Shown in pieces: positions 7,115-56,748 of a stretch of 64,000 nt of DNA. This DNA is from an uncultured Lachnospiraceae bacterium. Its GTDB lineage: Bacteria; Bacillota; Clostridia; Lachnospirales; Lachnospiraceae. The position numbers and the translations under genes were made by a program. The DNA is taken from contig CAMNQN010000001.1 in assembly GCA_946549155.1 (NCBI GenBank), positions 531 to 64,530 on the forward strand, given 5' to 3'. The stretch's first letter is position 1; each line of letters starts with the position of its first letter. The notes below the pieces were generated by a model. It worked only from the letters and a program-made list of their open reading frames with translations. It was not told where the DNA came from and made no database searches.

Positions 7115-7142
7115 GGAGGACATTTTGAAGCTGTCAGACGGA

Positions 7143-28467: not shown

Positions 28468-30066
28468 ATGAAGAGAATAATTATTCGGAGCTTAAGCTTT
28501 AGTATAATTTTATTGGTTTTATTTAATATAGTTTCAGAAATATTAAAAAAACCTAAGAATTCACAGTGGGATACGAGCGGTCTCGAATATACAAACAAAT
28601 ATCCGGGGCTTTTTGATGTTGTTTTTTCTGGAACAAGTATAACGATCATGAATGTAAGTAGTGAAGAATTATATACAGAATATGGTATTGCAGCAGTTAC
28701 GCTCGGAGAACCAGAACAGCCTATGTTTTTAACATATTATACGTTGTTAGAAGCACTGAATTATCAATCACCTAAAGTTGTATTTTTAGATATTAATTCT
28801 TTATTTTATTCGGAAAGTATGCTTCGAAATAAAATCAACGATTATGAACATTATTATTTACATTTTTCGTTGGATAGCATTAGAAACCCCATAATTAAAT
28901 ATGAAGCTTTTCAGGCTGCTAAAGAGTTGAAACCAGATTTAGACATATTTAATTACTTCTCTTCAATATATTATAACCATTCCAATTGGGAAGAACTGGG
29001 CAAAACTAATTTTATTCGTAAGAGCGGAAAACAAGTGATGAATGGATATTTTATGAGTTTTACAATTGCAGAAGGCTTAGCTAAGTTACGTGACAGTATT
29101 GATATTGATTATGCTGAGAATGTAAATGAAGAGGAATTATTGGATTTCAATAAAACTTACCTCATGAAGATAGTGGAATTGTGTAAAGAAAAGAATGTAC
29201 AATTAGTTTTTTTAAGGGGAGGAGGAATTGATACAGCCTTAACCAGTGAAAAATATAATACCATAAATAAAATTGCAATAGACAACGATATTCCATTTAT
29301 TGATATGCTGCAGCATGACAAAGAAATGGGATTTGACTGGCGGTTTGATGCATCAGATGGAAATCATTTTAATATAATGGGAGCAAAAAAGTGGACAGAT
29401 TATTTGGGAGATTATTTAATAAATAATTATCGATTTGAGGATAGACGTGATGATTCGAGATATAAATTTTTAGAAGAAGAGGTGGATCGCTATCAAAATG
29501 CATTAGCGGTAATGCAAACAAAAATTGATTTACTTTCTGCTATTAACTTTGAACAGTATCTGAATGCGCTTAAAGCGGTTGATACAAGTAAAAATACTAT
29601 TTTCATTTCAGTAAGTGATGATGCTTCAAAAAATCTTTCAAAGAAAGACTGTGACAAGTTATCGGAGCTAGGACTCACATATAATTTGATGGATAAATTT
29701 AGATACAGTTATTTAGCTGTGTTGGATAACCATACATCAAGAGATCTACTGGAAGACTGTGGAGTAACCCTGGATGGTGAATTGGATAATGGAAGTAGGT
29801 ATCAACTATCAAGCGGAGGGTATTCTTCAGGAGTGCTGGCTAGCATTCGAGTTGATGGTTTGGAGTTGATACAGGGAGGGCGTGGAATTAATATTGTGGT
29901 ATACAATAAAGAATATGGAGAAGTTTTAAGCAGTGTTTATTTTGACACTTTTTTATATGAGAATCCGCCAACTATGAGAAGAATCAATGTGGACATAGTT
30001 CAGGAGCAATACGAGACAAGCGCTAATGTTTGGTCATCAGTGGACGATGTATTGGTTCAGGATTAA
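28468..30066 (+). CDS. Membrane-anchored DltD/SGNH-like acyltransferase/esterase with C-terminal ILEI/PANDER-like domain
   Basis: N-terminal TM. FSGTSITIMN (Ser block) and DASDGNHFN (D..H block). C-terminal FISVSDDASKNLSKKDCDKLSELGL and GGRGINIVVYNKEYGEVLSSVYFDT resemble FAM3/ILEI blocks. Sits 25 nt upstream of an MBOAT gene. Confidence 0.65.
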   Translation: MKRIIIRSLSFSIILLVLFNIVSEILKKPKNSQWDTSGLEYTNKYPGLFDVVFSGTSITIMNVSSEELYTEYGIAAVTLGEPEQPMFLTYYTLLEALNYQSPKVVFLDINSLFYSESMLRNKINDYEHYYLHFSLDSIRNPIIKYEAFQAAKELKPDLDIFNYFSSIYYNHSNWEELGKTNFIRKSGKQVMNGYFMSFTIAEGLAKLRDSIDIDYAENVNEEELLDFNKTYLMKIVELCKEKNVQLVFLRGGGIDTALTSEKYNTINKIAIDNDIPFIDMLQHDKEMGFDWRFDASDGNHFNIMGAKKWTDYLGDYLINNYRFEDRRDDSRYKFLEEEVDRYQNALAVMQTKIDLLSAINFEQYLNALKAVDTSKNTIFISVSDDASKNLSKKDCDKLSELGLTYNLMDKFRYSYLAVLDNHTSRDLLEDCGVTLDGELDNGSRYQLSSGGYSSGVLASIRVDGLELIQGGRGINIVVYNKEYGEVLSSVYFDTFLYENPPTMRRINVDIVQEQYETSANVWSSVDDVLVQD

Positions 30067-30091
30067 AGCTTATTGAATTTGGAGAACCCCA

Positions 30092-31669
30092 ATGACTTTT
30101 TTATCAGGAATATTTTTTGCCTTTTTATTGATTACATTTATAATATACTTTATAGTGCCTCTCAGGCTTCGCTGGATCGTACTTCTGGCGGCCAGTGTGG
30201 TTTTCTATTTGTCCTCCGGCGTACCGCAGATTTTATTTATTCTTCTGTCGTCTCTGCTGGTATACGGTGCGGCCAGATGGATAGATGTTTTATATACCAG
30301 GCAGGACCGCGAATTAAAAGAGGGGGAATTTAGCCGGGAAGAGAAAAAGGCGCGAAAGCTTTCTGACCGGAAAAAATGCAGACGTATCCTGAATGCGGCT
30401 GTACTCCTCTTGTTGCTGGTGCTTACATACTGCAAGATTGGCGGCTGGGTAATCGGAAGCCTGCGGGATGCCCTGGGCGAGGGCACGGTGGACTGGATGC
30501 AGGTGATTGTTCCGCTGGGCGTTTCATATTATACGTTTTCACTGATCTCCTACCTGGCGGATGTATATTGGAGGAAAGAGAAGGCGGAGAAGAATTATTT
30601 TAAGTTTACGCTGTTTGTAATCTATTTCCCGAAAATCTTGCAGGGACCGATTTCCAGACATAAGAATCTGGCGGCGCAGCTGACGGAGGGACATGCTTTC
30701 GAGTATAAGCGGGTCTGTTACGGACTGCAGCTTGCTCTGTGGGGATATTTTAAGAAGCTGGTGATTGCGGATCGGCTGGCTGTTTTTGTTAATCGGGTGT
30801 TTGGCAATTATATGGCATACAGCGGACTGATTTTTGTGGTTGCTACGCTGCTGGCCAGTGTACAGCTTTATGCGGATTTCTCCGGATGTATGGATATCGC
30901 CTCCGGCGTTTCCCAGATTTTCGGAATTGAGCTGGAGAAAAACTTTGACCATCCTTTCTTTGCGCGAAGTGCTGCGGAATTTTGGCGCAGATGGCATATT
31001 ACGCTGGGGACTTGGTTTAAGGACTATGTGTATATGCCGCTGGTGGTTTCCCCCAGAGTGAGCAGGATTGCCCAGAGGGTGAAAAAGATGTTTGGAGCCC
31101 GGACCGGAAAAGCGATGATGACCATCATTCCCACAGGTATTGTCTGGGTACTCACTGGTTTGTGGCATGGTACGGGATATAATTATATTGCCTGGGGACT
31201 GTACTGGGGCGGTATCATTATTTTTTCTACAGTGTTTGCTCCGGAGATTCGAAAACTGACTGCCTTTCTGCGGATTAATACAGAGACCAGCGGATGGAAG
31301 GTGTTTCAGATGGTACGCACTTTTTTGCTTTTCTCCGTTGGGCGGTTGATTACGATCCCAGGGCATTTGAGGACGACGCTGGATGTCCTGGAAAAGATCG
31401 GGGAGCAGTTTGACATCTGGATTCTCTTTGACGGATCTTTGTATAATTATGGACTGAATCAGAAAAACTTTATACTGGTGATGATTACGCTCTTTATTCT
31501 GTGGGCGGTGAGTATGCTGCAGGAGCGGGGCTGTCTGCGGGACAAAATTGCGGGACAGAATATTGTGTTCCGCTGGGCGATTTATTATATTGCTTTTTTC
31601 TCCGTGCTGATTTTTGGAATGTATGGAGCTGGATTCAATAATGCAGTGTTTGCGTATATGCAATATTAG
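30092..31669 (+). CDS. MBOAT-family membrane O-acyltransferase (DltB/AlgI/PatA-like)
   Basis: FWRRWHITLGTWFKDYVYMPL and GLWHG histidine blocks; polytopic. Confidence 0.9.
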   Translation: MTFLSGIFFAFLLITFIIYFIVPLRLRWIVLLAASVVFYLSSGVPQILFILLSSLLVYGAARWIDVLYTRQDRELKEGEFSREEKKARKLSDRKKCRRILNAAVLLLLLVLTYCKIGGWVIGSLRDALGEGTVDWMQVIVPLGVSYYTFSLISYLADVYWRKEKAEKNYFKFTLFVIYFPKILQGPISRHKNLAAQLTEGHAFEYKRVCYGLQLALWGYFKKLVIADRLAVFVNRVFGNYMAYSGLIFVVATLLASVQLYADFSGCMDIASGVSQIFGIELEKNFDHPFFARSAAEFWRRWHITLGTWFKDYVYMPLVVSPRVSRIAQRVKKMFGARTGKAMMTIIPTGIVWVLTGLWHGTGYNYIAWGLYWGGIIIFSTVFAPEIRKLTAFLRINTETSGWKVFQMVRTFLLFSVGRLITIPGHLRTTLDVLEKIGEQFDIWILFDGSLYNYGLNQKNFILVMITLFILWAVSMLQERGCLRDKIAGQNIVFRWAIYYIAFFSVLIFGMYGAGFNNAVFAYMQY

Positions 31670-31677
31670 GATACTAT

Positions 31678-31705
31678 TTCCTAAAAAAGCATTATGTGTT
31701 ATGAT
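31678..31705 (+). promoter_or_regulatory. Candidate sigma-70-type promoter for the three-gene cassette
   Basis: TTCCTA, 16-nt spacer, TGtTATGAT (extended -10), about 30 nt upstream of ATG 31735. Confidence 0.35.
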
Positions 31706-31734
31706 AATAAAATACAAAGGGTGAATATTGGTAT

Positions 31735-32184
31735 ATGCGATTAAATGAAGAATTATGTATGAAGTTCCCGGCAGTTTTGCGAGAAAAATTATTAAAAGGT
31801 GAAATTGAACTTCCGGATACTACAGAATTTGATTATAAGAAGCTGCTGACATACAGGGCCGTAGCGCGAAAAGCGGATGATAATCGAGAAGTTACCTTGG
31901 AAGATTTTAAATCTTATTTTGAGCTGAAAAAAACGCCTAAGAGTCCCAGAGGAATGCTTAAAGTCGATCTCTCGAAGGATCCTCATTATTATGGAGTATC
32001 AAGTTTTTTGAAAAAGGAAATAGTAGAACAGAAGATGAAATTTCCGAATCCCAATAAAAAAATGGCGGTAGGGTACGTATATAAAGAAGGAGGTCCTCAG
32101 GAGACAAAGACAAAAGATCAGCATGTGTGCTGGTGGCTTTATAGTAACGCAGATGTTAGCGGATTTAAGCTATGGGAGGGTTAA
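31735..32184 (+). CDS. Hypothetical protein (149 aa), first gene of low-GC cassette
   Basis: RBS AAGGGTGAATAT. No family recognised. Lys-rich and soluble. Confidence 0.6.
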   Translation: MRLNEELCMKFPAVLREKLLKGEIELPDTTEFDYKKLLTYRAVARKADDNREVTLEDFKSYFELKKTPKSPRGMLKVDLSKDPHYYGVSSFLKKEIVEQKMKFPNPNKKMAVGYVYKEGGPQETKTKDQHVCWWLYSNADVSGFKLWEG

Positions 32185-32187
32185 TGG

Positions 32188-32853
32188 ATGGAAAAAGAAC
32201 AGTGCTTTTGTATTGAAAATAATATTCTTTATTTAGAGCAGGTGTTGGTTGACTATATGGATATTCCAATATTCTTTCTGTGCAAAGATCAAAGCCAATA
32301 TTATGTTGTATTATGTACAGATATTGATGCGCTTAATTATATTATTGTGAAGGTGGCTTTGGGAGAGGTATATGGCTTACTGCATGGAAAAATTCCAATG
32401 AGGAACGTTATTTTGGAACAAAAGGAATATTGGGAAGTTATTTCCGGAGAGGAGATTTCTCTGGATACAGTAATAAGGCACGGGATAGCGTCTCTTGATA
32501 CAGCGGTTTTACCAGAGAAAGAAGCTTGTTTTAAGATATTGACGGATGAAATGAGAATATTTGTTCAGAAATTTGATAATGATTTTTTGGCTTCCGAAAA
32601 TTTTTCCAAAACTCAAAAGATAATACAAGAGGATGACAGGTGGATGATAGATGAAACAATGGAGGAGTTCAGAATTGAGCGATTTATTGTTATGGAAGAT
32701 TATACTTTTAAAATAAAATTGCAGCATGGGCGTGCCTCTACTGTGAACTATGAGGAAAAGTATGGAACGGATAGGAAGAAAGCCACAGTACTGTGTAAAT
32801 TGCAGGCATTAGAAGAATGGGAGAATGAAGATACAAATAATGCTGCTGCATAG
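32188..32853 (+). CDS. Hypothetical protein (221 aa), second gene of low-GC cassette
   Basis: Starts 3 nt after the upstream stop. RBS GAGGGTTAAT. Acidic C-terminal part. No family recognised with confidence. Confidence 0.6.
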   Translation: MEKEQCFCIENNILYLEQVLVDYMDIPIFFLCKDQSQYYVVLCTDIDALNYIIVKVALGEVYGLLHGKIPMRNVILEQKEYWEVISGEEISLDTVIRHGIASLDTAVLPEKEACFKILTDEMRIFVQKFDNDFLASENFSKTQKIIQEDDRWMIDETMEEFRIERFIVMEDYTFKIKLQHGRASTVNYEEKYGTDRKKATVLCKLQALEEWENEDTNNAAA

Positions 32854-32864
32854 AGGGTGAATAT

Positions 32865-33269
32865 ATGGAAAAAGAACAAAACGCACAGAGCGTATTACAT
32901 TTGGATAAAATCGTTTTTGATAAAATTGAGTTTAAAAGACTGGGCATCGCGTCAGATAATGAACTGGAGTTGGAAATAAAATCTAATATTGCGCAAAGAC
33001 AGGATGCGGAAGTGTACAGGGTTACGCTGATATTAATCGGAAATAAGCCAGGGGAATATGTTTTTTAAATTAGTCTTACCGGATTTTTTTCGTTTCAGCA
33101 AAATGCAGAAATTACAGAAGAGCTAAGGCATGCATTGATTACAAAAAATGCGGTTGCTATTTTAATGCCATATTTGAGGAGTGAGGTTTCTCTTTTGACG
33201 GCCCAACCGGGTATGGAATGTGTAGTTTTGCCTGCATTTAATATTAACAGAATACTGGAGAATAATTAG
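32865..33269 (+). pseudogene. SecB-like chaperone gene interrupted by an in-frame TAA (33066-33068)
   Basis: The 67-aa track ORF (LHLDKIVFDKIEFK, EVYRVTLILIG, GEYVF) continues in the SAME frame after the TAA. The continuation reads ISLTGFFSFQQNAEITEELRHALITKNAVAILMPYLRSEVSLLTAQPGMECVVLPAFNINRILENN. This aligns to E. coli SecB blocks (FQIQRIYTKDISFE, DVYEVVLRV, CEVQQAGIFSI, NILFPYARECITSMVSRG..LNLAPVNF). Confidence 0.7.
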
Positions 33270-33325
33270 TTCCTATTCGTTAATAGATAATATTTGGAAT
33301 GATTATTGTAGAGGAGAATAATATA

Positions 33326-33553
33326 ATGGAAGAAAAGGTATTAGCATTATTACAGGGAGAATTTCCTGAAGTGGATTTTTTAGCATCAGAGGAGCTGGTA
33401 GATGACGGGATTTTGGATTCCCTGACGCTGACGGGTATCATCGCGGCGCTGACGATGGAGTTTGATATCACGATTCCCTATGAGGAGATTGTGGAGGAGA
33501 ATTTTAATTCCATCGCGGGAATGGCCGCTATGGTGGAACGGCTGATGGAATAG
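33326..33553 (+). CDS. Acyl/aminoacyl carrier protein (DltC/ACP-like)
   Basis: 75 aa, acidic. ILDSLTLTGIIAAL contains the DSL phosphopantetheine-Ser motif. GAGGAG RBS before ATG 33326 (the track start 33299 is probably too long). Confidence 0.8.
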   Translation: MEEKVLALLQGEFPEVDFLASEELVDDGILDSLTLTGIIAALTMEFDITIPYEEIVEENFNSIAGMAAMVERLME

Positions 33554-33558
33554 CGAAG

Positions 33559-33586
33559 AGCTTGCGCGAAGAGCGCAGGCTTTTTG
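33559..33586 (+). terminator. Intrinsic-terminator-like hairpin between the carrier-protein and ligase genes
   Basis: AGCTTGCGC-gaaga-GCGCAGGCT: 9-bp stem with one G-U pair, followed by TTTTTG. Confidence 0.5.
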
Positions 33587-33642
33587 CAATTCTGGTGGGA
33601 TGTGCCTGACAAGGAAAAAAGCGGAAGAAGGGAAACGCAGAA

Positions 33643-35685
33643 ATGTATAGAACGATAGTGGAAGCGATATTGGAACATGGAAAAAACAGACCGGACAAGC
33701 TGGCAGTGGGCTTTAAAAAGGTCCGGATTACTTATGGGGAACTGGCAAGACAGATACAGATAATGGCTGGGCAGCTGCGGAGGGAATACGGTATTCAGAA
33801 GGGTGATTTTGTGATGATTACCGGAGTGTCAAAGCCGGAATATGTATCTGCTTATCTGGCGATTCAGTATCTGGGCGCCGTTTCGATTCCCATGGATAAG
33901 ACGGCCCGTGAGGAGACGGTACTGGATGTGTACCGCTATGTGCAGCCCAGGCTGATGCTGACGGACAGCAAAATCCAGGCGGAGGATGTCCGGCTCGTAT
34001 CTTTGAAGAGCCTGTATGGGTCGACGGCGGAGAGCGCTGTGCATGAGTCGGAGGGGCCATTGGCTTACCAGCCTCCGGAAAATGACGTGGTGGCGGAGAT
34101 TTTGTTCACAACGGGAACCACAGGAAAACCGAAGGGAACCATGCTGAGCATCGGGAATATCTATGCCAGTATGCACAATACCTGGCATGGAGTGGGCATG
34201 GAGCCGGAGGATACGGTTCTGATTCCTGTGCCGCTCTGTCATTCCCTGGGGATGCGTGTGATGCGAACCGCGTTGTATATTGGAGCCACGGTGGTGATTC
34301 AAAACGGGTTTGCCTTTGCAAAGGAACTGGAAAATAACATAGAGGCTTTTCATTGTACGGGACTGGTGAGCGTGCCTGCCTCTATGGAGGTGATTTATCG
34401 CCAGATGGGCGACCGTTTTCCGGAAATCATGGGAAAACTGCGGTATATGGAAGTGGGAGCCGGTTCCCTTGGGTTTGACATGAAAAAGAAGCTTTGCAGG
34501 GTTCTGCCGGATACCAGAATCGTGAATACCTGGGGCTCTACGGAGACCGGAGGGGCTATTTTCCTGAAGGTGTCGGAGCATCCGGAGAAGTTTGCGTCCA
34601 TTGGGAAACCCATCGACACGGTGGAACTGAAAGTGGTGGACAGCCAGGGAAGGACCGTGGCGGCCCGGGACATGGAGTCTGCCGGACGGATGGTTCTTCG
34701 CGGGGCTATGCAGATGCAGGGATATTATCATATGCCGGAGGCTACAAAAAGTACGTTGGTGGATGGCTGGCTTTATACGAATGATATGGTTTATACGGAT
34801 GAAGACGGTTATGTGTATATGCTGGGACGGGCGGATGACATCATTAATGTGGGAGGCGAAAAGGTGTCGCCCATTGAGGTGGAAAATATTGCCCAGGAAT
34901 TCGAGGGGATTCGGGAATGCGCCTGCGTCGGCGTGGCGGATCCGGAGGGTATTTTGGGACAGATTCCGGTGCTTTATGTGGTGCCGGAGGATGGTCGGTT
35001 TGAGCAGGACGAGCTGGTCCGGTATCTGGCAAGCAGGCTGGAGAAATATAAGCTGCCGCAGAGGTATGTGGTGATCGGGGAGCTCCCCAGAAATCGTATG
35101 AAAAAGCTGGATCGGAAGGCGCTTTTGCGGATGTGGCAGGAGACGGGAGATAGTCCATTGATGAATGAGGTGGTTCGTAATATTTTAAGCCGGAGAAGTG
35201 TCAGGGACTTTACGGAAAAGGAGATTCCCAGGGCAAATCTGGAAATGATTCTGCAGTGCGGGCTTTATGCCCCCAGCGGACATAATATGCAGACCTGGAA
35301 ATTTACGGTGATACAGGATGCGTCAAAGATTGAGAAATTCAAGGAAATCGTAGGGAAGGCAGCGAAGGAGAACAAGGTGTATTTTTACGGATTGAATAAT
35401 CCCAATGCGCTGATCCTGATTTCCAATGATAGAAGAAATGCAAATAGTATACAGGACAGCGCCTGCGCGGCGGAGAATGTGATGCTGGCGGCGAATTCCT
35501 ACGGGATAGGTTCTGTGTGGATTAACGCGCTTCACACGATCTGCGATGTGCCCGAGATCCGGGCGCTGCTTCAGGCCTATGGAATACCGGATACGCATAT
35601 TGTGTGGGCAACGATTGCCATGGGATATCCGGAAAAACCGGGTAAGCTGCTGGCAAAGAAGCAGACAGTGATCCATTGGGTTTAA
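33643..35685 (+). CDS. ANL-superfamily adenylating enzyme (AMP-dependent ligase) fused to a C-terminal nitroreductase-fold domain
   Basis: FTTGTTGKPKGTML, NTWGSTETGG, YTNDMVYTDEDGYVYMLGRADDIINVGGEKVSPIEVE, KKLDRK. From about aa 500: ILSRRSVRDFTEKEIP and APSGHNMQTWKFTVIQD (nitroreductase family). Single 680-codon frame. Confidence 0.85.
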   Translation: MYRTIVEAILEHGKNRPDKLAVGFKKVRITYGELARQIQIMAGQLRREYGIQKGDFVMITGVSKPEYVSAYLAIQYLGAVSIPMDKTAREETVLDVYRYVQPRLMLTDSKIQAEDVRLVSLKSLYGSTAESAVHESEGPLAYQPPENDVVAEILFTTGTTGKPKGTMLSIGNIYASMHNTWHGVGMEPEDTVLIPVPLCHSLGMRVMRTALYIGATVVIQNGFAFAKELENNIEAFHCTGLVSVPASMEVIYRQMGDRFPEIMGKLRYMEVGAGSLGFDMKKKLCRVLPDTRIVNTWGSTETGGAIFLKVSEHPEKFASIGKPIDTVELKVVDSQGRTVAARDMESAGRMVLRGAMQMQGYYHMPEATKSTLVDGWLYTNDMVYTDEDGYVYMLGRADDIINVGGEKVSPIEVENIAQEFEGIRECACVGVADPEGILGQIPVLYVVPEDGRFEQDELVRYLASRLEKYKLPQRYVVIGELPRNRMKKLDRKALLRMWQETGDSPLMNEVVRNILSRRSVRDFTEKEIPRANLEMILQCGLYAPSGHNMQTWKFTVIQDASKIEKFKEIVGKAAKENKVYFYGLNNPNALILISNDRRNANSIQDSACAAENVMLAANSYGIGSVWINALHTICDVPEIRALLQAYGIPDTHIVWATIAMGYPEKPGKLLAKKQTVIHWV

Positions 35686-35703
35686 TTACTGAAAGGACGG
35701 ATA

Positions 35704-37521
35704 ATGGGAGGGTATCATATGTTGAGCACTGCGCAGTTTGGCTGGAATGAGTCTGATACAGAGGGCGACAGGAAGAAAATAAGAAAGAAATGGTCAGTGG
35801 TATGGGTGCTGCTGCTATTCGCATCGTTTCTTTTGGCAATGCCGGTCTATGCTTATAATTTTTTTACGGACTATCCGTTTTACCAGGCCAGGCCGGACAC
35901 GGAAGATCCACGTATTTTGATGGTGGGAAACAGTCTCACTTATACGAATGATATTCCTGCGCTGTTAAGATACATGTGCAGGGACACGGGCATCAATGCT
36001 GCGGTGGACAGCGTTACACAGGGAGGGCATTCCCTCACTCAGTACGCTTATCCGACGACGGCATGGGAAGAGCAGCTGCATGAGAAGATAATGACAAAGC
36101 TGACCACGCAGAAATGGGATTACGTGATTCTCCAGGGGAGAAGCGATGAGACAATCGTGAATGAGGAGAGTATGCGCAGAGCAGTGGCGTATTTTTATCC
36201 GTATATAAAAAATGCAGGCGCTCAGATGGTGCTTTATCTGACCTGGGCGCCGGATTATGGAACGGGCGGATACGACATAGATGCCAGACAGGGGGAGATT
36301 GCCAAGGTATATTACAGTATCGCAAGGCAATATAACTGCGCTTTGGCGCCTTCCGGGATCGCGTTTGCCAGGGAGCGCAGGCTTTATCCGGATTATGATC
36401 TGTATTACAGCAGCAGCGACCGGCTCCATCCTAATCTGTCCGGCAGCTATTTATCCGCGTGCTGCATTTATGCTACCCTGTTTGGAAAAAGTCCGGATCA
36501 TATTTCTTATACGGCGGGACTTGCCTCGGAAAAGGCGGGGGCTTTGCGGGGGATTGCCTCAGATGTCACGTTACGACGCAGCAGAGAGGAAGTCCAGGTG
36601 ACGACGGCAAAAGCTGTCACCGGGGGCTATCAGCTGAAACCCGGCGGGAAAGTAAAGCTGGGGATTTCCGCATCCGCGGGGGTGCGTATGATCCGGACAT
36701 CCAGCAGCGATGAAGGCGTGGCTACGGTAAGCAGTACGGGAGTTGTCACAGCCAGGGCAGCCGGTACGGCCAGTATCACGGCGTTGATGAGCAATAATAA
36801 GAGTTTGACCTGGAAAATCGTGGTGACAGGTAACAGCAAGGTGACGCTGGGAGCGGGGGATACTGAAAAAATCGATTTTTCATCCAATGGCTTCCGGTGG
36901 ACCACTTCCAATAAAAAGATCGCCGTGATAAAGAATGGGACAATTACGGCGAAGGCGAAGGGAACAGCCACACTGACCGGAAAGCACAGCAGTGGTTTCC
37001 AGGTGAAGCTGAAGGTTACGGTAAAGGCGGCGCCAGAAAAGATTACGGTGAAAAATGCGCCCAAAACTCTTGCGGCCGGGAGGACTTTCCAGCTAAAGCT
37101 GAATGTTTCCAAGGTGCGGGTGACATACAAATCCTCTGCTCCGGGCGTTGTTTCTGTGTCAAAGCAAGGCGTGCTGACGGCGAAAGGTCCGGGCACAGCG
37201 AAAATTACGGTAAAAAGCTATAATGGAAAGAAAACCTCCTTCCGGGTGACGGTGACGGTGCTGGCAAAGAAGCTTACGGTTACCAATGTCAAGAGCGGTA
37301 CGACTATGAGAGTAGGACAGACCCGGAAATTGAAGGTGAGCTTCAGCCCGCAAAATGTATCCAGCCGGGCGGTCACCTATAAATCCAGCAATACAAGGGT
37401 ATTGAAGGTAAGTAAAAAGGGAACGATTACGGCGCTGCATTCAGGGAGGGCTAAGATTACGGTGACGGCGGCGGATGGGTCGAAGAAGAAGGCTGCGGTT
37501 GAAATTAGGGTGAGGAAGTAG
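35704..37521 (+). CDS. Surface SGNH-fold (DUF4886-like) esterase/acyltransferase with four Big_2-type Ig repeats
   Basis: TM/signal anchor. ILMVGNSLTY, QGGHSL, SSDRLHPNLSGSYL. C-terminal repeats of the type VATVSSTGVVTARAAGTASITA, GTITAKAKGTATLTG, GVLTAKGPGTAKITV, GTITALHSGRAKITV. Confidence 0.8.
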   Translation: MGGYHMLSTAQFGWNESDTEGDRKKIRKKWSVVWVLLLFASFLLAMPVYAYNFFTDYPFYQARPDTEDPRILMVGNSLTYTNDIPALLRYMCRDTGINAAVDSVTQGGHSLTQYAYPTTAWEEQLHEKIMTKLTTQKWDYVILQGRSDETIVNEESMRRAVAYFYPYIKNAGAQMVLYLTWAPDYGTGGYDIDARQGEIAKVYYSIARQYNCALAPSGIAFARERRLYPDYDLYYSSSDRLHPNLSGSYLSACCIYATLFGKSPDHISYTAGLASEKAGALRGIASDVTLRRSREEVQVTTAKAVTGGYQLKPGGKVKLGISASAGVRMIRTSSSDEGVATVSSTGVVTARAAGTASITALMSNNKSLTWKIVVTGNSKVTLGAGDTEKIDFSSNGFRWTTSNKKIAVIKNGTITAKAKGTATLTGKHSSGFQVKLKVTVKAAPEKITVKNAPKTLAAGRTFQLKLNVSKVRVTYKSSAPGVVSVSKQGVLTAKGPGTAKITVKSYNGKKTSFRVTVTVLAKKLTVTNVKSGTTMRVGQTRKLKVSFSPQNVSSRAVTYKSSNTRVLKVSKKGTITALHSGRAKITVTAADGSKKKAAVEIRVRK

Positions 37522-41919: not shown

Positions 41920-42166
41920 TATATTCAGGTATAGAATGCTTGAGGAATACAGTGAATCTTTTGGCTTGTAACAAGGAGGATAGCAATATGAAGCTGGAAG
42001 AAACGGAAAGGGATACAGTACTAGATTTTTTGAGAATTATTGCGCAATTAATTACTGGAGTTCCTTGTATAATTCAAAGCGCAGAGGAGTTCGATGAATA
42101 AAACGTTATTTGAAGCGGTAGGTTCTGCGAAATATGATAGAATTTGTTCGGGGAAGGGGAGAAAGT

Positions 42167-43627
42167 ATGGATTCAAAAGCTATCAAAACAATATTGGATA
42201 TAGGGGAAACTATTGCGGTAGAATTTAAACGTTGTGGAAATGGTATTGATAGTGACGTTTACGAAACGGTATGTTCCTTTTTAAACCGTTTTGGCGGAGA
42301 CATATTTTTAGGCGTACTGGATGATGGAACAGTTTCTGGTGTGCCTGAAAATGCTGCATCTGATATGGTAAAAAATTTCATAAGCTGTGTCAGTAATCCG
42401 TTATTGTTTACGCCGACAGTCTATTTATCGCCTCAAGTTATACAGTATGAAGGGAAAACGGTTATTCATATACATGTTTTACCAAGCGCGGAGGTGCACA
42501 GTTATAAAAAGACGGTTTATGATCGGGTAGATGATGCAGATGTAAAGGTAACAGCAACTTCTCAAATTGCGCAAATGTATATTCGTAAACAGGAAATTTT
42601 TACGGAGCGAAAAGTTTATCCTTATGTAAAGAAAGAAGATCTCCGGCTCGACTTATTTCCTAAACTTCGTGTTATGGCAGAAAATCAGAGTAGGGGGCGG
42701 GGGCATTTATGGAACAGTATGACAGATGATGAATTAATGAAAAGTACAAGGCTATTTACAATGGATCGCGTGACGGGTGAGCAGGGTTTTAATTTGGCGG
42801 CAGTTATGCTTTTGGGAAGAGATGATGTGATTTTGGATATTGTTCCGGCCTATGTGACAGATGCGTTGCTTCGCCGTGTTAATATAGACCGTTATGATGA
42901 TAGAGAAATGGTGCAGACAAATTTGATAGAAAGCTATGAGATTTTAATGGAATTTGGACGTAAGCATTTGCCGGATAAATTTTTCCTGGAAGGTGATCAG
43001 AGGAAGAGCCTGAGGGATATCATTACTCGGGAAATGATCGCAAATACATTAATTCATCGTGAATATACAAGCTCTTATCATGCAAAATTCGTGATCGGGG
43101 AAGAACGAATGTATGTGGAGAACGCAAATCGAGCTTCTCAGAATGCAGTTATTACGCCAAATAACGTGGAGCCATCACCGAAAAATCCAATTATTGCAGC
43201 TTTTTTTAGAAACATTGGATACGCAGATCAACTAGGTTCAGGTGTACGAAATTTATTTAAATATAGTAAATTTTATTCAGGCGGAGGCCCTGAGTTTATT
43301 GAAGGGGACATATTCAGAATTATTGTACCGCTGAAGGAAGAAAATAGGGAGGAAATAACCACCCAAACGTCCACCCAGTCCACCCAAACGTCCACCCAGT
43401 CCACCCAATCAAGCGGGATGGACTTGGAACAGGCAATTATTATGCTTATAGAGCGGGAGCCATTTCTTTCTCAAAAACAAATGGCTGAAAAATTGTGTTT
43501 AAATGTAAATACACTGAAGTATTATATGAAGAAAATGCGGGAAAAAGGGATGATTGAGAGAGTTGGTACCAGCCGAAAAGGAAAATGGATGGTGTCTGAA
43601 CATGGCAGTTCCTGCGGCAAATTTTAG
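42167..43627 (+). CDS. AlbA_2 (Schlafen-like) + HATPase_c_4-like + C-terminal wHTH protein
   Basis: GETIAVEFKRCG....FLNRFGGDIFLGVLDDGTVSGV (AlbA_2 pattern). ANTLIHREYTS. Thr/Gln/Ser repeat linker. C-terminal LSQKQMAEKLCLNVNTLKYYMKKMREKGMIERVG (wHTH). ATG 42167 follows GGGGAGAAAG. Confidence 0.7.
   Translation: MDSKAIKTILDIGETIAVEFKRCGNGIDSDVYETVCSFLNRFGGDIFLGVLDDGTVSGVPENAASDMVKNFISCVSNPLLFTPTVYLSPQVIQYEGKTVIHIHVLPSAEVHSYKKTVYDRVDDADVKVTATSQIAQMYIRKQEIFTERKVYPYVKKEDLRLDLFPKLRVMAENQSRGRGHLWNSMTDDELMKSTRLFTMDRVTGEQGFNLAAVMLLGRDDVILDIVPAYVTDALLRRVNIDRYDDREMVQTNLIESYEILMEFGRKHLPDKFFLEGDQRKSLRDIITREMIANTLIHREYTSSYHAKFVIGEERMYVENANRASQNAVITPNNVEPSPKNPIIAAFFRNIGYADQLGSGVRNLFKYSKFYSGGGPEFIEGDIFRIIVPLKEENREEITTQTSTQSTQTSTQSTQSSGMDLEQAIIMLIEREPFLSQKQMAEKLCLNVNTLKYYMKKMREKGMIERVGTSRKGKWMVSEHGSSCGKF
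43358..43410 (+). repeat. In-frame 21-nt tandem repeat (2.5 units) encoding (TQTSTQS)n
   Basis: ccacccaaacgtccacccagt occurs twice, then ccacccaatca, inside the AlbA_2 gene linker. Confidence 0.9.
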
Positions 43628-43712
43628 AATGCAGGTGATTGCAATTAATGAAGGTTTGAAGAAGATAGAGAGGAAGGATACGATTTTGCTGCAGGATAAT
43701 AGGAATAAAATA

Positions 43713-44618
43713 ATGTCGGTGGTTCTTCCCGCCTACAATGAGGAGGCCATGCTGCTAAAAACAGCGGAGACATTAAAAAAAATATTACAAAAGGAAAAGA
43801 TAGAGTATGAACTGGTCTTTGTGGACGATGGTTCCAAAGACAGTACCTGGAAACGCATCGAGGAGGCGGCCGGAGCGGATTGCCAGGTGCGCGGCGTACA
43901 TTTTTCCAGAAATTTCGGAAAGGAGGCGGCCATCTTTGCGGGGCTGGCATCCGCTTCCGGGGATTGTGTGGCGGTGATGGACTGTGACCTGCAGCATCCC
44001 CCGGCGGCATTGGTGGAAATGTACCGGCTCTGGGAAGAAGGGTACGAGGTGGTGGAAGGCGTGAAGAAAAGCCGCGGGAAGGAAAGTGCGCTGCACCGGG
44101 CCAGTGCGGGGATGTTTTATAAGCTGATGTCGAAGGCCACCAGCATTGATATGTCCCGGGCTTCGGACTTTAAGCTGTTGGACCGCAGGGCGGTGGAGGT
44201 TCTGCTGGAGATGCCGGAACGGAACGCGTTTTTCAGGGCCATGTCCTCCTGGATTGGTTTTCAATCCACCACGGTGGAGTTTGATGTGCAGGAGCGGGAG
44301 GCAGGCGAGTCGAAATGGTCTACGAAATCTTTGATTCAGTACGCGATTACGAATATTGTGGGGTACTCTGCCGCACCGATGCAGGTTGTGACGGGAGCGG
44401 GGGTGGTGGTCTTTTTGCTGGGAATTGTTTTGGGTATCCAGACGTTGATACGGTATTTCAGCGGACATGCTGTGGAAGGGTTTACCACGGTTATTTTGCT
44501 GCTGTTGCTGTTGGGGAGCATTATTATGATCAGCCTGGGGATTATTGGATATTATATTTCCCGGATTTATGAGGAAGTGAAGGGACGGCCCAGGTATATT
44601 ATTTCAAAAAGGATTTAG
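43713..44618 (+). CDS. GtrB-like polyprenyl-phosphate glycosyltransferase, copy 3 (divergent)
   Basis: MSVVLPAYNEE, VDDGSKDST, FSRNFGKEAA, DCDLQHPP, two C-terminal TM helices, RPRYIISK. ATG 43713 chosen because the track start 43554 overlaps the upstream gene. Confidence 0.85.
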   Translation: MSVVLPAYNEEAMLLKTAETLKKILQKEKIEYELVFVDDGSKDSTWKRIEEAAGADCQVRGVHFSRNFGKEAAIFAGLASASGDCVAVMDCDLQHPPAALVEMYRLWEEGYEVVEGVKKSRGKESALHRASAGMFYKLMSKATSIDMSRASDFKLLDRRAVEVLLEMPERNAFFRAMSSWIGFQSTTVEFDVQEREAGESKWSTKSLIQYAITNIVGYSAAPMQVVTGAGVVVFLLGIVLGIQTLIRYFSGHAVEGFTTVILLLLLLGSIIMISLGIIGYYISRIYEEVKGRPRYIISKRI

Positions 44619-44668
44619 TTCGATTAATATAATTAGCAATAAGTTGCAGATAATAACAAAAAGAAATC

Positions 44669-44697
44669 TTGCAACATCCCGGCGATTGTTGTAAAAT
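44669..44697 (+). promoter_or_regulatory. Candidate sigma-70-type promoter of the methyltransferase/nuclease cassette
   Basis: TTGCAA (44669-44674), 17-nt spacer, TAAAAT (44692-44697). GGAGG RBS lies before ATG 44770. Confidence 0.5.
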
Positions 44698-44769
44698 AGT
44701 AAGTGTATAGGCGTAAATGAAGGGGTCTTTGGTTTGGATAGCTAAGCAGAGAAAAATGGAGGTAGATGG

Positions 44770-47658
44770 ATGGACAGCATACGGACAATTATACAGCGGC
44801 TGGGATATGAGAAGTCAGATGGATTGTTTTACGCATCGGAATTGTCCAGATGCAGTTTGCTATCCTGGCATGACAAGAGGGTATTGAAGGAGCTATTGCC
44901 GTATGCGGTATATATTGCGGATGGTAAGATTTTTGTTGCCTTTTTTAATGACTTGCATCTGCGGGAGAATAGTGAAATTCAATGTAAGATTTGGAATGCT
45001 CAGATACCGGTTATTATTTCTGATGAGGGCGAGCTGGTTAAGATTTATAATGGGCGAAGTATGCAGCTTGGGGATGCCCGGAAAGTGCTGCTCTCGCATA
45101 TTGGGGACTATGAGATAGAGCAATTTGATGAAACGTGTTCGTTTTCTTACTGGAATGTCACAAACGCTGATTTGACCGGTGAAAAAAGAGAAAATTCAGA
45201 CAGGACATATTTCAATGATTATTTGGTGGATAATCTCAAATTTCTCACGCAGCAGCTGAAGGAAAGGTATCATATAACCTTTGCCAATAAATTTGTTTTA
45301 CGGATTATATTTATTCGATACTTGATTGATCGAGGCATAGATATTGGATATGGTGGATTGAATGGTGACAGAGAAAAATCCCGGCATATTTTTTTGGAGA
45401 TTGTCCGGAATAAGAGTGAACTTTTTGCTTTGTTTGCTTATTTAAAAAATCGATTTAATGGGAATCTTTTTGAAATGGAGGAGGCGAAAGAGCGGGAAGA
45501 AATGAAAGAAGCGGCACTGTTTTTGGTGCATGTTTTCTTGACCGGGCAGATGGAGGCCAGGACGGGACAGTTATGGCTGTTTCCTTTTTATGACTTTAAT
45601 ATTATACCGATTGAATTGATCAGCAATATATACGAGATTTTGCTTGGACGTGAAAAGCAGAATAAAGATAAGGCTTTTTATACACCGGAATATCTTGCAG
45701 ATTTTATGGTTGAGCAGACGGTTGGAGCTTATTTAATTAAGGAACGGGAATGCACGGTGCTGGATCCGGCTTGCGGATCAGGGATCTTTCTGGTAAAGGC
45801 GCTTAGAAAGATTTTGGAGAAAAATGCGTCCGAAAATGGCTTTTTGGACAGAGACGAAATTAATCGGTTGGTTGAAGCCAATATATACGGTGTAGATTAT
45901 AACGAAGAGGCAATAGATGTTACGATTTTTTCTCTGTATATTACGCTATTTGATTATCAGGATCCTAAGAGCCTGAAGGATTTTAAGCTTCCTTTGCTTA
46001 AAGGGAAAAATATTCTTTATGGTGATTTTTTTGATGAGGATACATTGGAGCCTATGAATGGTATCAAGTTTAAATTTGTTATCGGAAATCCACCATGGGG
46101 CAGTGTGCAGCAGAATTTATATAAGGAATATTGCAAAAAAAGAGGGGTTAAACTTCAAAATGGAGAGATCAGTGTTGCATTTTTATTGAAAACATGGGAA
46201 ATGGGGGGTGCGGATACGGAATGCAGTCTCATTATTCCGTCTAAGATTTTATATAAGGGCAAGGCACCTTCCTGTGATTTTCGGAAAAAAATGCTGACAG
46301 AAGTAGAGATGCGCCAGGTATTGGAGCTTTCTGCTGTAAGAAAACAAATATTTAAGGGGGCGGTAGCACCGGCAGCGGTGTTGTCTTTCGTATGCAAAAA
46401 AGCACTTTATGAACATAAGGTGGAGTATATTAGTTTAAAGCCCAATGAATATTTAAGACGTTTCGGCATTATAATGGTTGAACCAGATGATATTAAATAT
46501 GTAGAGCAGAGCTCTCTCTTACAATATGATGAATTGTGGAAAATATTGGTGTATGGAGGATATTGGGATTTTGAGCTGCTTCATTCGATGAAAAGAAAGC
46601 TGCAAACGATTAGGGATATTGAAAAGAAGTATGGGCTTATGCCAGGCGAAGGCATTCAGGATCATTATGGAGATGGCCAGGATGCGTCGCATTTGACAGG
46701 ACGTATATTGTTGGATTCTGATGGATGTATTGAACATTTTAAGTTAAATACAGAGCATCTGGAGGTGTTTCAAAAAGAACGGATTCATCGTCCGCGAAAA
46801 AAGGAATTGTTTGAACCGCCGTATGTTTTTTTCAAGAAAGGATTGGATTGCAGCAATTATTCTATCAAGGCTGTTTATTCGGAAAAGCGGCTGGTTTATA
46901 AAGAGACGGTTAATTGCATTAAAGGAACCTTTGCGGATAAAGGGGTGCTTTTAAATCTTGCAGGACTTTTTAATTCTTCTTTATTTTCCTATTTTAATCT
47001 CATGCTGGGTTCTTCGGTAGGCATTGAACGGGAGCAGATGTTTTCTACGGAGTTGGAAAATTTCCCGTATGTTTATAGTGAAGAGCTGGTTATGCTTGTT
47101 CAAAAGATTCAGGAAGCTGCGGAAGCGGGAAATGATATAACGGATTGGAAGGAAAAGCTGGATCAGTGTGTCCTTGAAATGTACGGCGTACAGGACAATT
47201 ATTTTGTGGATTATGCTTTGAAAATTCAGATTCCAATCTTGTGCGGAAAATACAGAAAGACAAAATGCAGGGAAGAGATTTTGAAAAAATACGCACAGGT
47301 TTTTATGGAATTATGGCAGGCGCGGTTAGAAAGAACAGGTTTGTATTATTCTATTTACTTATACCCGGATATAAAAGGAAAATTTACGGCGTTTCAGATG
47401 AAACTTTCTTTTGAAAAGCTGGATAAAGAGATACATGTTGTGGAAACCATCGATGATGATGTGGAGTTGCTCACCAAATTTATGATTTATAAGTGGAACG
47501 ATTGCTTTTTTCAGACAAAGAATGTGGTGGAGTTTGATGAAGATTCTTTTGTAATTGTGAAAACTGCAGATTCGAAAAACTGGCACCCTGCTATGGCGAT
47601 AAAGGATAGTTATAAGGCTTTAAATACAGTACTTCTGGGAGAGGAGGACTGGAAATGA
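44770..47658 (+). CDS. Large gamma-class N6-adenine DNA methyltransferase, MmeI/PglX-like architecture
   Basis: Motif I VLDPACGSGIFLV (V330). Motif IV VIGNPPWG (N440). Upstream FNGNLF and IPIELISNIYEILL blocks. About 500 aa C-terminal to the catalytic core, presumably the specificity region. Confidence 0.8.
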   Translation: MDSIRTIIQRLGYEKSDGLFYASELSRCSLLSWHDKRVLKELLPYAVYIADGKIFVAFFNDLHLRENSEIQCKIWNAQIPVIISDEGELVKIYNGRSMQLGDARKVLLSHIGDYEIEQFDETCSFSYWNVTNADLTGEKRENSDRTYFNDYLVDNLKFLTQQLKERYHITFANKFVLRIIFIRYLIDRGIDIGYGGLNGDREKSRHIFLEIVRNKSELFALFAYLKNRFNGNLFEMEEAKEREEMKEAALFLVHVFLTGQMEARTGQLWLFPFYDFNIIPIELISNIYEILLGREKQNKDKAFYTPEYLADFMVEQTVGAYLIKERECTVLDPACGSGIFLVKALRKILEKNASENGFLDRDEINRLVEANIYGVDYNEEAIDVTIFSLYITLFDYQDPKSLKDFKLPLLKGKNILYGDFFDEDTLEPMNGIKFKFVIGNPPWGSVQQNLYKEYCKKRGVKLQNGEISVAFLLKTWEMGGADTECSLIIPSKILYKGKAPSCDFRKKMLTEVEMRQVLELSAVRKQIFKGAVAPAAVLSFVCKKALYEHKVEYISLKPNEYLRRFGIIMVEPDDIKYVEQSSLLQYDELWKILVYGGYWDFELLHSMKRKLQTIRDIEKKYGLMPGEGIQDHYGDGQDASHLTGRILLDSDGCIEHFKLNTEHLEVFQKERIHRPRKKELFEPPYVFFKKGLDCSNYSIKAVYSEKRLVYKETVNCIKGTFADKGVLLNLAGLFNSSLFSYFNLMLGSSVGIEREQMFSTELENFPYVYSEELVMLVQKIQEAAEAGNDITDWKEKLDQCVLEMYGVQDNYFVDYALKIQIPILCGKYRKTKCREEILKKYAQVFMELWQARLERTGLYYSIYLYPDIKGKFTAFQMKLSFEKLDKEIHVVETIDDDVELLTKFMIYKWNDCFFQTKNVVEFDEDSFVIVKTADSKNWHPAMAIKDSYKALNTVLLGEEDWK

Positions 47659-48314
47659 ACGGGCAGATAAACAGTAGTATCCGTCAGGCGCTGCGGCAGG
47701 ATGAATTTGAGCAGATTGTGGGGTATATTCTGAGCGTTTGTTGCCTTGTTCTGGATGATTTTCAGCGAAGAAAACGCACGCTGCCGAATGATGAAAACCG
47801 TATTAGAAGTATTATTTTGAACGAATATCTGGACGATGATGAGGTCAGAAAAAATTATGGGATGTCGGACTGTGAGTTTATTCCTGAAGTGCCGGAAAAT
47901 TATGATGGAGCCGGGCATTATAAAGGCAGGACAGATATCCGAATCAAAGTGAAATCAGATTTTGACAGGCGGGCTGCTTATTACATAGCAGAATGCAAAA
48001 GAATTGACGGAAGTCCTGACTTGAACAAAGCTTACGTTCACGAAGGAATTGCCAGGTATAGCAACAGAAAGTATTCTGCATATTTTGGGAAAAATATCAT
48101 GCTGGGTTTCGTTGTAAAGCCCTTGAATATAGCGGAGAATACAAAGCGAATTGAACAAATCCAAAATGAATTGGAGGATACCTGTATGCATGGAAAGTTT
48201 CGGCTGCTAGATACGCAGGCTTGCGGAGAAGTTTATAATTGTATTTATCAGATGGAAAAAGAGAAATTGGAACTTCGACATATTTTTTCGGATTTTTCCG
48301 ATATTATGGAATGA
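47655..48314 (+). CDS. Small PD-(D/E)xK nuclease-fold protein
   Basis: ATGA overlap with the methyltransferase gene. GRTDIRIKV (D94), then about 19 residues later YIAECKRIDG (E-x-K). Confidence 0.65.
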   Translation: MNGQINSSIRQALRQDEFEQIVGYILSVCCLVLDDFQRRKRTLPNDENRIRSIILNEYLDDDEVRKNYGMSDCEFIPEVPENYDGAGHYKGRTDIRIKVKSDFDRRAAYYIAECKRIDGSPDLNKAYVHEGIARYSNRKYSAYFGKNIMLGFVVKPLNIAENTKRIEQIQNELEDTCMHGKFRLLDTQACGEVYNCIYQMEKEKLELRHIFSDFSDIME

Positions 48315-48813: not shown

Positions 48814-48972
48814 ATGAAAAAGATGGAAAAATGGATAGCCAGAATGGATTCTTTTATGAAGGAAATGGGAGAGGAGTACAATAAGCTTGTGGAAACTTTT
48901 TCTTCCCAGTATATGATTTCAGGCGCCTGTATACAAAACAAGATATGTATTCTTAGAAAGAAAATCCTATGA
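48814..48972 (+). CDS. Small hypothetical protein (52 aa)
   Basis: AAGGGAG RBS 9 nt upstream. Its stop overlaps the start of the next gene (ATGA at 48969-48972), which suggests translational coupling. No family recognised. Confidence 0.35.
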   Translation: MKKMEKWIARMDSFMKEMGEEYNKLVETFSSQYMISGACIQNKICILRKKIL

Positions 48973-50141: not shown

Positions 50142-50261
50142 TGACAGGCATCCGGGAAGCTCTTAAGTGTGGGACGGCGGGCTGTGGAGAGTATTCGCAG
50201 GATGTGCGGTCGGGAAAACAACGTACCTGACAAAGGGTGGCAATAGGGAGGAGAGGAACCT

Positions 50262-51485: not shown

Positions 51486-51600
51486 GAAATTCGCAAAATG
51501 GCCTTGCGCTGGGTACGAAAAGAAATTATACTGGGAACCAAGCGGTATGGTCTTAGAAGAGTACTGCGATGGGGCAGACGGATAGAATGGAGGAAAAAAG

Positions 51601-53345: not shown

Positions 53346-53362
53346 CAGGAGCGGAAGAAAAG

Positions 53363-53398
53363 GGAGCCACGCATATTTTGCGGTGGCTCCTGCTTTTC
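53363..53398. terminator. Bidirectional intrinsic terminator between convergent genes
   Basis: GGAGCCACGCA-tatt-TGCgGTGGCTCC stem. Flanked by A-rich sequence (gaagaaaag) on the left and tgcttttc on the right. Lies between the tarJ stop (53345) and the stop of the minus-strand gene (53408). Confidence 0.55.
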
Positions 53399-53407
53399 GT
53401 CAAAGCG

Positions 53408-56617: not shown

Positions 56618-56697
56618 AAAATCCTCCCGGATGGATAAAATAAATGCATTGCGGCTCTGTAGAATATAACAGAATAAAAGAGAGCCGTTACGGGGAA

Positions 56698-56726
56698 ATT
56701 ATAAGGGAGATTTTAGAAAAAGTCAA
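56698..56726 (-). promoter_or_regulatory. Near-consensus promoter for the 1069-aa gene
   Basis: Minus strand reads TTGACT, 17-nt spacer, TATAAT (plus-strand agtcaa at 56721-56726 and attata at 56698-56703). Confidence 0.55.
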
Positions 56727-56748
56727 CTGTGCGGGAAGATTCAGGGGA

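Follow-up and report, generated by a model that had tools for sequence, protein, structure and literature searches.

Can the logic of the dltABCD operon, in which a substrate is adenylated, loaded onto a carrier protein and then transferred outside by an MBOAT acyltransferase together with DltD, be rebuilt from other parts, and what would such a machine attach to the cell surface? The question is raised by a locus at positions 28468-37521 of a 64,000-nucleotide stretch from an uncultured Lachnospiraceae bacterium (GenBank assembly GCA_946549155.1, contig CAMNQN010000001.1, positions 531 to 64,530 of the forward strand), referred to here in its entirety as the window. A preliminary description, drawn from the letters of the DNA, had proposed that five co-oriented genes of this locus form a non-canonical Dlt-like module; the five open reading frames (ORFs), their positions and their domains were all recovered in our analysis, four of them with Pfam support. 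What we observed is the identity of the domains, the conservation of catalytic residues, the folds and the linkage of the genes; from these we arrive at a reading to which we assign a probability of roughly 0.65, in which the locus would encode an MBOAT-SGNH system that is supplied by a carrier protein and esterifies a polymer of the envelope outside the cytoplasm.

Domains were identified by Pfam and NCBIfam profile searches, by sequence matches to PDB entries and by Foldseek searches of AlphaFold2 (AF2) models against the PDB. For comparison, 80 loci from species-representative genomes were fetched and searched with all proteins of the window, and linkage was counted over the 40 loci that contain a complete ligase::nitroreductase fusion with sufficient flanking DNA. 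The features on which the argument depends are the following.

28468..30066, + strand: P1, a membrane-anchored extracytoplasmic SGNH-fold protein, putative final acyltransferase
30092..31669, + strand: MBOAT acyltransferase (Pfam PF03062, E 2.6e-13), with catalytic His302 in RWHITL
31649..31666, + strand: FAYMQY hexapeptide, MBOAT residues 520-525, matching the FXYXXF acyl-shuttle motif
33326..33553, + strand: stand-alone carrier protein of 75 residues (PP-binding, 23.1 bits, cut-off 20.8)
33419-33421, + strand: carrier Ser32, the phosphopantetheine attachment site, in LVDDGILDS (LDSLTL)
33643..35160, + strand: ANL adenylating domain of the acyl/aryl-CoA-ligase type, approximately residues 1-505 (AMP-binding 217 bits, AMP-binding_C 55 bits)
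35161..35685, + strand: nitroreductase-family domain of the flavin mononucleotide (FMN) type, approximately residues 507-680 (PF00881, 94.1 bits, cut-off 23.5)

A recurrent four-gene cassette

Adjoining the fused ligase on the same strand, we found the carrier in 39/40 loci, the MBOAT in 37/40 and a P1-like gene in 30/40, with all three present in 29/40. Of two recurrent gene orders, P1>MBOAT>carrier>ligase accounts for 17 loci and MBOAT>carrier>ligase>P1 for 7, and the carrier gene directly followed the MBOAT in 45/51 loci. As this arrangement recurs in dozens of species it does not reflect chance, and the co-conservation of ligase and carrier with the MBOAT, a test that had been set beforehand, upheld the proposed Dlt-like logic. 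The conserved unit is four genes, namely P1, the MBOAT, the carrier and the ligase::nitroreductase; the fifth gene of the preliminary description, encoding an SGNH protein with Big_2 repeats (SGNH-Big_2), occurs in only 5/80 loci, and the claim of a five-gene module had to be given up. Clustering of the neighbouring ORFs revealed no fifth conserved family, the next commonest being GT2 glycosyltransferases in 15 loci. A Pfam scan of 106 flanking proteins returned scattered glycan genes only, with no co-conserved substrate-biosynthesis genes, and no condensation enzyme, ketosynthase or other acyl-carrier consumer was conserved among the neighbours.

The ligase::nitroreductase architecture is found in more than 120 protein clusters defined at an identity of at least 58%, or about 20 clusters at the 50% level, and the only taxon-labelled cluster of the larger set is assigned to Lachnospiraceae. 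The nearest relatives of the cassette proteins likewise come from metagenome-assembled genomes of Lachnospiraceae, for example Marvinbryantia sp., and near-identical proteins are present in other assemblies. Database names for these proteins are generic only, and full-text literature searches aimed at this module found no description of it. Cassettes of approximately 49-50% identity were also encountered on contigs binned outside the Lachnospiraceae (L043, L045, L046, L053, L055, L057 and L066), the bins being Chloroflexi, Bacteroidales, Bacteroides fragilis, Bacteroidaceae, Prevotella, Muribaculum and Alistipes; the likelier explanation is that contigs of Clostridia were binned wrongly, the other being horizontal transfer.

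Variant cassettes indicate how the parts can be recombined. Two loci, L050 (6813-11512) and L060 (8373-12556), encode a related ligase of 60-63% identity that stops right after the A10 motif, without a nitroreductase domain, and that directly abuts the MBOAT; P1 and an MBOAT with the shuttle motif are kept, and no carrier lies within 10 kb. Such nitroreductase-less ligases depart from the fusions at the otherwise invariant T180, V206 or F223. Judging from these two informative cases, carrier and flavin domain seem to come and go as a pair, which would fit an action of the flavin domain on the acyl group while the carrier holds it. In four further loci (L006, L057, L078 and L080), a second, distant MBOAT lineage with the C-terminus NPFIYFNF or AFIYENF stands beside the same carrier-ligase::nitroreductase pair, and DHHW- or DUF1574-type partners replace P1. 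The association of one carrier-ligase pair with two MBOAT lineages points to a donor module that has been joined to a transfer module. Finally, L036 (3182-13538) and L012 (2620-15400) each contain two adjacent cassettes, one with a flavin-fused ligase and one with a distant, unfused ANL ligase that has its own carrier, L012 also encoding two MBOATs. Taken together, these variants suggest that MBOAT systems which are carrier-fed and self-shuttling form a modular family. The second ligases of the double-cassette loci (L012, L014, L031, L036 and L054) were considered as candidate DltA enzymes and rejected on the basis of NCBIfam.

Parts of the cassette and their relatives

The preliminary description had read the ligase motifs as those of a generic acyl/aryl-AMP ligase rather than of DltA, and this assessment was sustained. 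FTTGTTGKPKG (A3) and GSTETGG, the latter as part of WGSTETGG (A5), are present together with GRADD (A8) and Lys488 (A10), and the ANL core motifs are at least 95% conserved across 76 fusion proteins. The best NCBIfam matches are fatty-acid and o-succinylbenzoate (OSB) CoA ligases, all scoring far below the equivalog cut-offs, with no DltA model (TIGR01734/PRK04813) among the best 25 and none reaching its cut-off; in the PDB, FadD5 and MenE come closest. Relatives comprise fatty-acid, OSB, feruloyl, oxalate and malonate (malonyl-CoA) enzymes, at approximately 25-30% identity for the closest characterised ones, and residues 2-499 align to positions 7-523 of the 531 in the acyl-CoA ligase profile with no large insertion; in fatty acyl-AMP ligases (FAAL), a family-specific insertion blocks the use of CoA. 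In the A4 motif, PLCH200SLG, the ligase has His200 at a position occupied, in amino-acid-activating adenylation domains, by an Asp that binds the alpha-amino group; similarly, it has Gly298 where acetyl-CoA synthetase has the Trp that restricts its pocket to acetate. From these residues we infer a substrate that is a carboxylic acid without an alpha-amino group and larger than acetate. Arg205, five residues after the A4 His200, is invariant and might face the pocket. Since the ligase is not DltA, the earlier suggestion that a group other than D-alanine is transferred is a reasonable one, and the substrate of the cassette is almost certainly not D-alanine.

The domain fused to the ligase has as its closest PDB entry 3EK3, an uncharacterised nitroreductase of B. 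fragilis (8.6e-35), and is nearest to minimal stand-alone nitroreductases of about 172 residues. Its FMN motifs, RRSxR and APSxxNxQxW, are conserved, and positions conserved to at least 95% number 34/175 in this domain versus 96/500 in the ANL domain, so that the two are equally constrained. Because the FMN motifs are kept and the constraint equals that of the ligase, the nitroreductase domain is very likely an active flavoenzyme. A further stand-alone nitroreductase-like ORF was noted right after the fused ligase of another locus (L038, 12033-12629), scoring 147 bits to the flavin domain of the fusion.

The carrier gene starts at an ATG at 33326 preceded by an AGAGGAG ribosome-binding site. 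The modifiable serine on which the proposed module depended, Ser32, is kept in 67/68 aligned sequences. Against the DltC equivalog model the protein scores 28.3 bits where the cut-off is 68; its profile matches mark it as a generic PP-binding protein, which would make it a functional analogue of DltC and not a member of that family.

The MBOAT resembles DltB most closely among solved structures, 6BUG being its best match both by sequence (7.7e-23) and by fold (template-modelling (TM) score 0.74), and its RWH302ITL aligns with RWHMSL of DltB; this His motif is present in 65/66 MBOATs adjoining the ligase. Its score against the NCBIfam DltB equivalog is nevertheless 138.8 bits, below the cut-off of 375. 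The protein is approximately 100 residues longer than DltB, its extra C-terminal residues being put at about 150 and ending in FAYMQY. In the structure model, which has a mean predicted local distance difference test score (pLDDT) of 88, two C-terminal helices absent from DltB (457-478 and 491-510) precede the FAYMQY tail, whose low pLDDT is consistent with a flexible segment. An F-x-Y-x-x-[FY] terminus is found in 65/66 ligase-adjoining MBOATs versus 0/678 other long ORFs. In DltX and PatA the tyrosine of the FXYXXF motif is acylated and its role as an acyl shuttle has been demonstrated, and the motif has been reported as fused to the MBOAT in systems without DltX, that is, those of the PatA/AlgI type (PMC12148441). 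By analogy, Tyr522 is the predicted acyl acceptor of the tail. The preliminary description had remarked on the lack of a DltX-like micro-ORF; our search of the locus also found none, and the motif itself is present after all, a DltX-like ORF being missing because FXYXXF is fused to the MBOAT's C-terminus. A basic cytoplasmic segment of the MBOAT (approximately residues 70-100) was considered as a dock for the carrier and rejected, as carrier-less relatives have the segment too.

P1 is the least easily recognised of the four proteins. Its sole Pfam match is a C-terminal ILEI/GG-type domain, and the N-terminal 360 residues match no sequence model, which meant that an SGNH assignment had to come from structure prediction. 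In the AF2 model (pLDDT 92.9), an N-terminal transmembrane helix (2-26) is followed by an alpha/beta domain of the SGNH type and, at the C-terminus, by a beta domain, and Foldseek aligned the model with SGNH hydrolases, including DltD (3BMA) and PatB (7TLV/7TJB); chain 3BMA_B is among its top three fold matches (probability 1.0, E 7.6e-4, TM-score 0.37), and the PatB match likewise has a probability of 1.0. Conserved residues form the motifs G55-x-S57 and D297-x-x-H300, S57 being retained by 46/49 sequences and H300 by 49/49, and we regard S57, D297 and H300 as a candidate catalytic triad. The proposed SGNH/DltD-like nature of P1 is thus favoured by a high-confidence structure model and by conserved residues, and finds no counterpart among DltD or SGNH sequence models. 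Pfam DltD is found in no member of the P1 family and ILEI in 31/36, a lectin-like Laminin_G_3 domain replacing ILEI in distant members. Among the related loci, no other cassette protein diverges as much as P1, and this divergence and the swapped C-terminal domains would fit a role in recognising the acceptor.

How does this set of parts compare with known machines? As in Dlt, an ANL enzyme would load a small stand-alone carrier, an MBOAT with a conserved His would move the acyl group across the membrane, an FXYXXF tyrosine would serve as shuttle and a membrane-anchored SGNH-fold protein would act as final transferase. Unlike Dlt, the cassette has a nitroreductase-fused ligase of the acyl-CoA-ligase type, no DltX microprotein, a shuttle motif carried by the MBOAT on two extra helices, and a P1 that has no match to the DltD sequence family and ends in an ILEI/GG-type domain. 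By the DltA, DltB and DltC models alike, the cassette falls outside the Dlt family. The C-terminal FXYXXF on two additional transmembrane helices and a separate, N-terminally anchored SGNH partner are shared with PatA/PatB(/Ape1), AlgI/AlgJ/AlgX and WssH, the optional second SGNH enzyme being comparable to Ape1. Unlike the PatA/PatB class, a dedicated carrier and ligase are linked to the MBOAT (39/40 and 40/40 loci), donor use being predicted here from gene content. Judged by its sequences, the cassette is a hybrid design, carrier-fed as Dlt is and self-shuttling as PatA/PatB is.

Two other systems share single traits with it. AlmEFG of Vibrio cholerae, which places glycine on lipid A, has a Dlt-like ANL ligase and small carrier recruited for a non-teichoic envelope component; it differs in that AlmG is an LPLAT-type acyltransferase of the cytoplasmic face, AlmE activates an amino acid and there is no flavin domain. 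The 'Ox' units of nonribosomal peptide synthetases, such as those for epothilone and bleomycin, combine an adenylation domain with an FMN domain of the nitroreductase superfamily that acts on a carrier-tethered intermediate. Unlike these, the cassette domain is nearest to 3EK3-type minimal NAD(P)H nitroreductases and probably not to the azoline dehydrogenases of the McbC/SagB-type branch, no condensation or cyclisation domain is present, and the product would go to an MBOAT rather than into a peptide.

Accessory gene, insertion and mosaic composition

Within the window the four conserved genes are not contiguous, and a fifth gene follows them.

35704..37521, + strand: SGNH-Big_2, a secreted or anchored accessory protein (DUF4886, 38 bits, plus four Big_2 repeats; GNS and DRLH motifs)
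31735..33270, + strand: window-specific insertion of about 1.6 kb, with three ORFs between MBOAT and carrier
31735-32184 and 32188-32853, + strand: insertion ORFs of unrecognised family, no family match
within 31735-33270, + strand: SecB-like ORF of the insertion, interrupted by an in-frame TAA at 33066-33068

SGNH-Big_2 is a lineage-specific accessory outside the conserved core, true orthologues being found only in the two closest relatives, L001 and L050; in L001 it is present and P1 is absent. It may be an Ape1-like esterase that trims the modification, or a second or alternative transferase.

The three ORFs at 31735-33270 had been overlooked when the five genes were listed, and are a local insertion that splits the module and does not belong to it. 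None of them has a homologue in any of the 80 related loci, the stop-to-stop distance from MBOAT to carrier is 1884 nt in the window versus a median of 267 nt (51 loci), and GC content at third codon positions (GC3) is 0.34 in the insertion versus 0.55 in the genes on either side. The interrupted ORF is called SecB-like on weak matches (Pfam SecB, E 4.9e-4; phrog_21664, E 8e-13), and the insertion may be the remnant of a toxin-antitoxin-chaperone or defence element. Along the locus, GC3 runs from 0.27 in P1 to 0.55 in the MBOAT, 0.34 in the insertion and 0.55-0.62 in the carrier, ligase and SGNH-Big_2. These sharp steps indicate recombinational mosaicism of the locus, and P1 may have been exchanged by recombination. 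A pattern scan for promoters and terminators gave counts no higher than in shuffled sequence, and no operon structure is claimed.

A proposed route and the readings that compete with it

We infer each chemical step of the route below by analogy with Dlt and PatA/PatB, and with them the acceptor polymer and the redox role. The ANL domain would adenylate a carboxylic acid without an alpha-amino group and thioesterify it to the phosphopantetheine on Ser32 of the carrier. The fused FMN domain would then act on the substrate, most probably through NAD(P)H-dependent reduction of an activated group, during or after loading of the acyl chain onto the carrier; reduction seems likelier than dehydrogenation because of the nitroreductase type and the anaerobic hosts, and any specific redox role, this one included, is held with low confidence at best. 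At the cytoplasmic face the MBOAT would accept the acyl-carrier, and His302 would move the acyl group to the enzyme's own Tyr522 at the outer face, from where the FAYMQY tail could hand it to Ser57 of P1. P1 would finally esterify a hydroxyl of the wall glycopolymer, with its C-terminal lectin-like domain helping to bind the polymer, and SGNH-Big_2 would be an optional extra to this scheme.

Several observations weigh against such a route. P1 has no DltD, SGNH or AlgX match in Pfam or NCBIfam, its Foldseek E-values are weak (approximately 1e-3), and 10/40 loci have no recognisable P1. The genomic neighbourhoods of the cassette are only partly glycan-related. L050 and L060 argue that an acyl-CoA route can feed related cassettes and that the flavin domain is not essential for transfer. 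In the window itself, the 1.6-kb insertion and the mosaic GC3 mean that neither co-expression nor a matched pairing of P1 with the MBOAT is assured.

The acceptor is the point at which the best-surviving alternative departs from this route: the machinery would be as proposed, and the group would be placed on a membrane lipid or glycolipid anchor, on peptidoglycan or on a surface protein instead of a wall glycopolymer. The varied genomic contexts would fit a universal acceptor, for instance lipoteichoic acid or peptidoglycan, and there are precedents in PatB, which acylates peptidoglycan, and in eukaryotic MBOATs, which acylate proteins and lipids. We consider this alternative fairly unlikely, however, as in the window the cassette sits among extracytoplasmic glycan-decoration genes, P1 has a lectin-like C-terminal module (ILEI, or Laminin_G_3 in a distant member) and its divergence would be expected if it tracked variable polymers. 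The 64-kb window is a long + strand array of envelope-glycan genes, which includes two Wzm/Wzt ABC exporters, numerous GT2/GT4 glycosyltransferases and an LtaS-like sulfatase-fold protein, along with GtrB/PgfS-like GT2 and GtrII-like (GT-C) proteins. Further downstream, 48969-59397 encodes four TagF-like CDP-glycerol/ribitol phosphotransferases, one of them (1069 residues) on the minus strand, alongside an IspD/TarI-like cytidylyltransferase and a TarJ-like alcohol dehydrogenase; this teichoic-acid-type pathway near the cassette is a possible source of the acceptor.

It is also conceivable that in this genome the cassette is a decaying, non-functional mosaic, broken by insertion and recombination. 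An inserted segment with a nonsense-interrupted SecB-like gene between MBOAT and carrier, and the GC3 jumps between P1, MBOAT, insertion and ligase block, are what such decay would leave behind. We nevertheless judge this improbable: the five ORFs of the preliminary description are all on the + strand, uninterrupted and of full length, and none of the conserved catalytic residues is missing; the pattern scan shows no convincing excess of terminators in the insertion, and the near-identical proteins of other assemblies speak against it too.

Could the MBOAT and P1 instead perform acetyl-CoA-dependent O-acetylation of the PatA/PatB type, next to an unrelated carrier and ligase::nitroreductase that serve a pathway such as lipid or secondary metabolism? 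With its fused motif the MBOAT belongs to the PatA/AlgI type, whose enzymes use acyl-CoA; the acyl-CoA-dependent MBOAT-SGNH systems 'lack a similar carrier protein', acetyl-CoA being their source of acetyl (PMC12148441). Carrier-less cassettes do exist, as seen in L050 and L060. This division of labour is, however, very improbable given the very tight linkage over approximately 40 species and two MBOAT lineages, a ligase that abuts the MBOAT even in the carrier-less variants, and the lack of any conserved condensation enzyme, ketosynthase or other acyl-carrier consumer nearby.

That the locus is a divergent dltABCD operon which D-alanylates teichoic acid is hardly credible: the genes follow one logic in both, no solved relative is closer to the MBOAT than DltB, the Joint Genome Institute (JGI) labels some homologues of the MBOAT 'DltB', a DltC model is among the weak matches of the carrier and teichoic-acid-type genes lie at 48969-59397, yet the ligase has no DltA model among its best 25 NCBIfam matches and has His, not Asp, in A4, the DltB and DltC scores fall below their cut-offs, the MBOAT carries a fused shuttle that DltB lacks (PMC12148441) and D-alanylation has no place for a nitroreductase domain.

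We return to the proposed carrier-fed MBOAT-SGNH system and to what it would mean. Acylation of polymers by MBOAT-SGNH machinery has been described as following two designs, Dlt with its carrier and DltX, and carrier-less acetyl-CoA systems with a fused shuttle (PMC12148441). The cassette combines both and adds a flavin domain, so that bacteria may esterify their surfaces with acids beyond D-alanine and acetate. It might tentatively be placed in a third class of bacterial envelope-acylation machinery, carrier-fed, with a shuttle built into the MBOAT and a flavoenzyme-fused loader, that installs a redox-tailored, non-amino-acid ester on surface glycopolymers; this is a possibility that we put forward with less than even confidence. 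With four genes, none of them dedicated to making the substrate, the cassette forms a compact, self-contained unit; it is common in the Lachnospiraceae, a family that is dominant in the gut of humans and animals and about whose envelope chemistry very little is known. If the proposal is true, such an ester would be a new chemical determinant of the surface, relevant to interactions with phage, the immune system and antimicrobial peptides, and it could affect phage adsorption, recognition by the host or resistance to cationic peptides. A new role for domains of the nitroreductase family could also emerge once the acyl group is identified, and, with several ligase types in the wider family, several different acyl groups could be installed.

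Two further features of the window were recorded. The ORF at 1702-3642 encodes, in a single protein of 646 residues, a Wzt-like ABC ATPase (residues 46-177) and a complete UDP-galactopyranose mutase (GLF, 412-612), and adjoins an ABC-2 permease; the fusion of a glycan-export ATPase with an enzyme of galactofuranose-precursor synthesis is unusual. At 42134-48314, the glycan locus is interrupted midway by genes for a Schlafen/AlbA_2-HATPase_c_4 protein and for a restriction-methylase of type IIG (PADLOC, E 1.9e-105), and a similar Schlafen/AlbA_2 protein is encoded directly upstream of the MBOAT in L001, the closest related locus (6373-7809).

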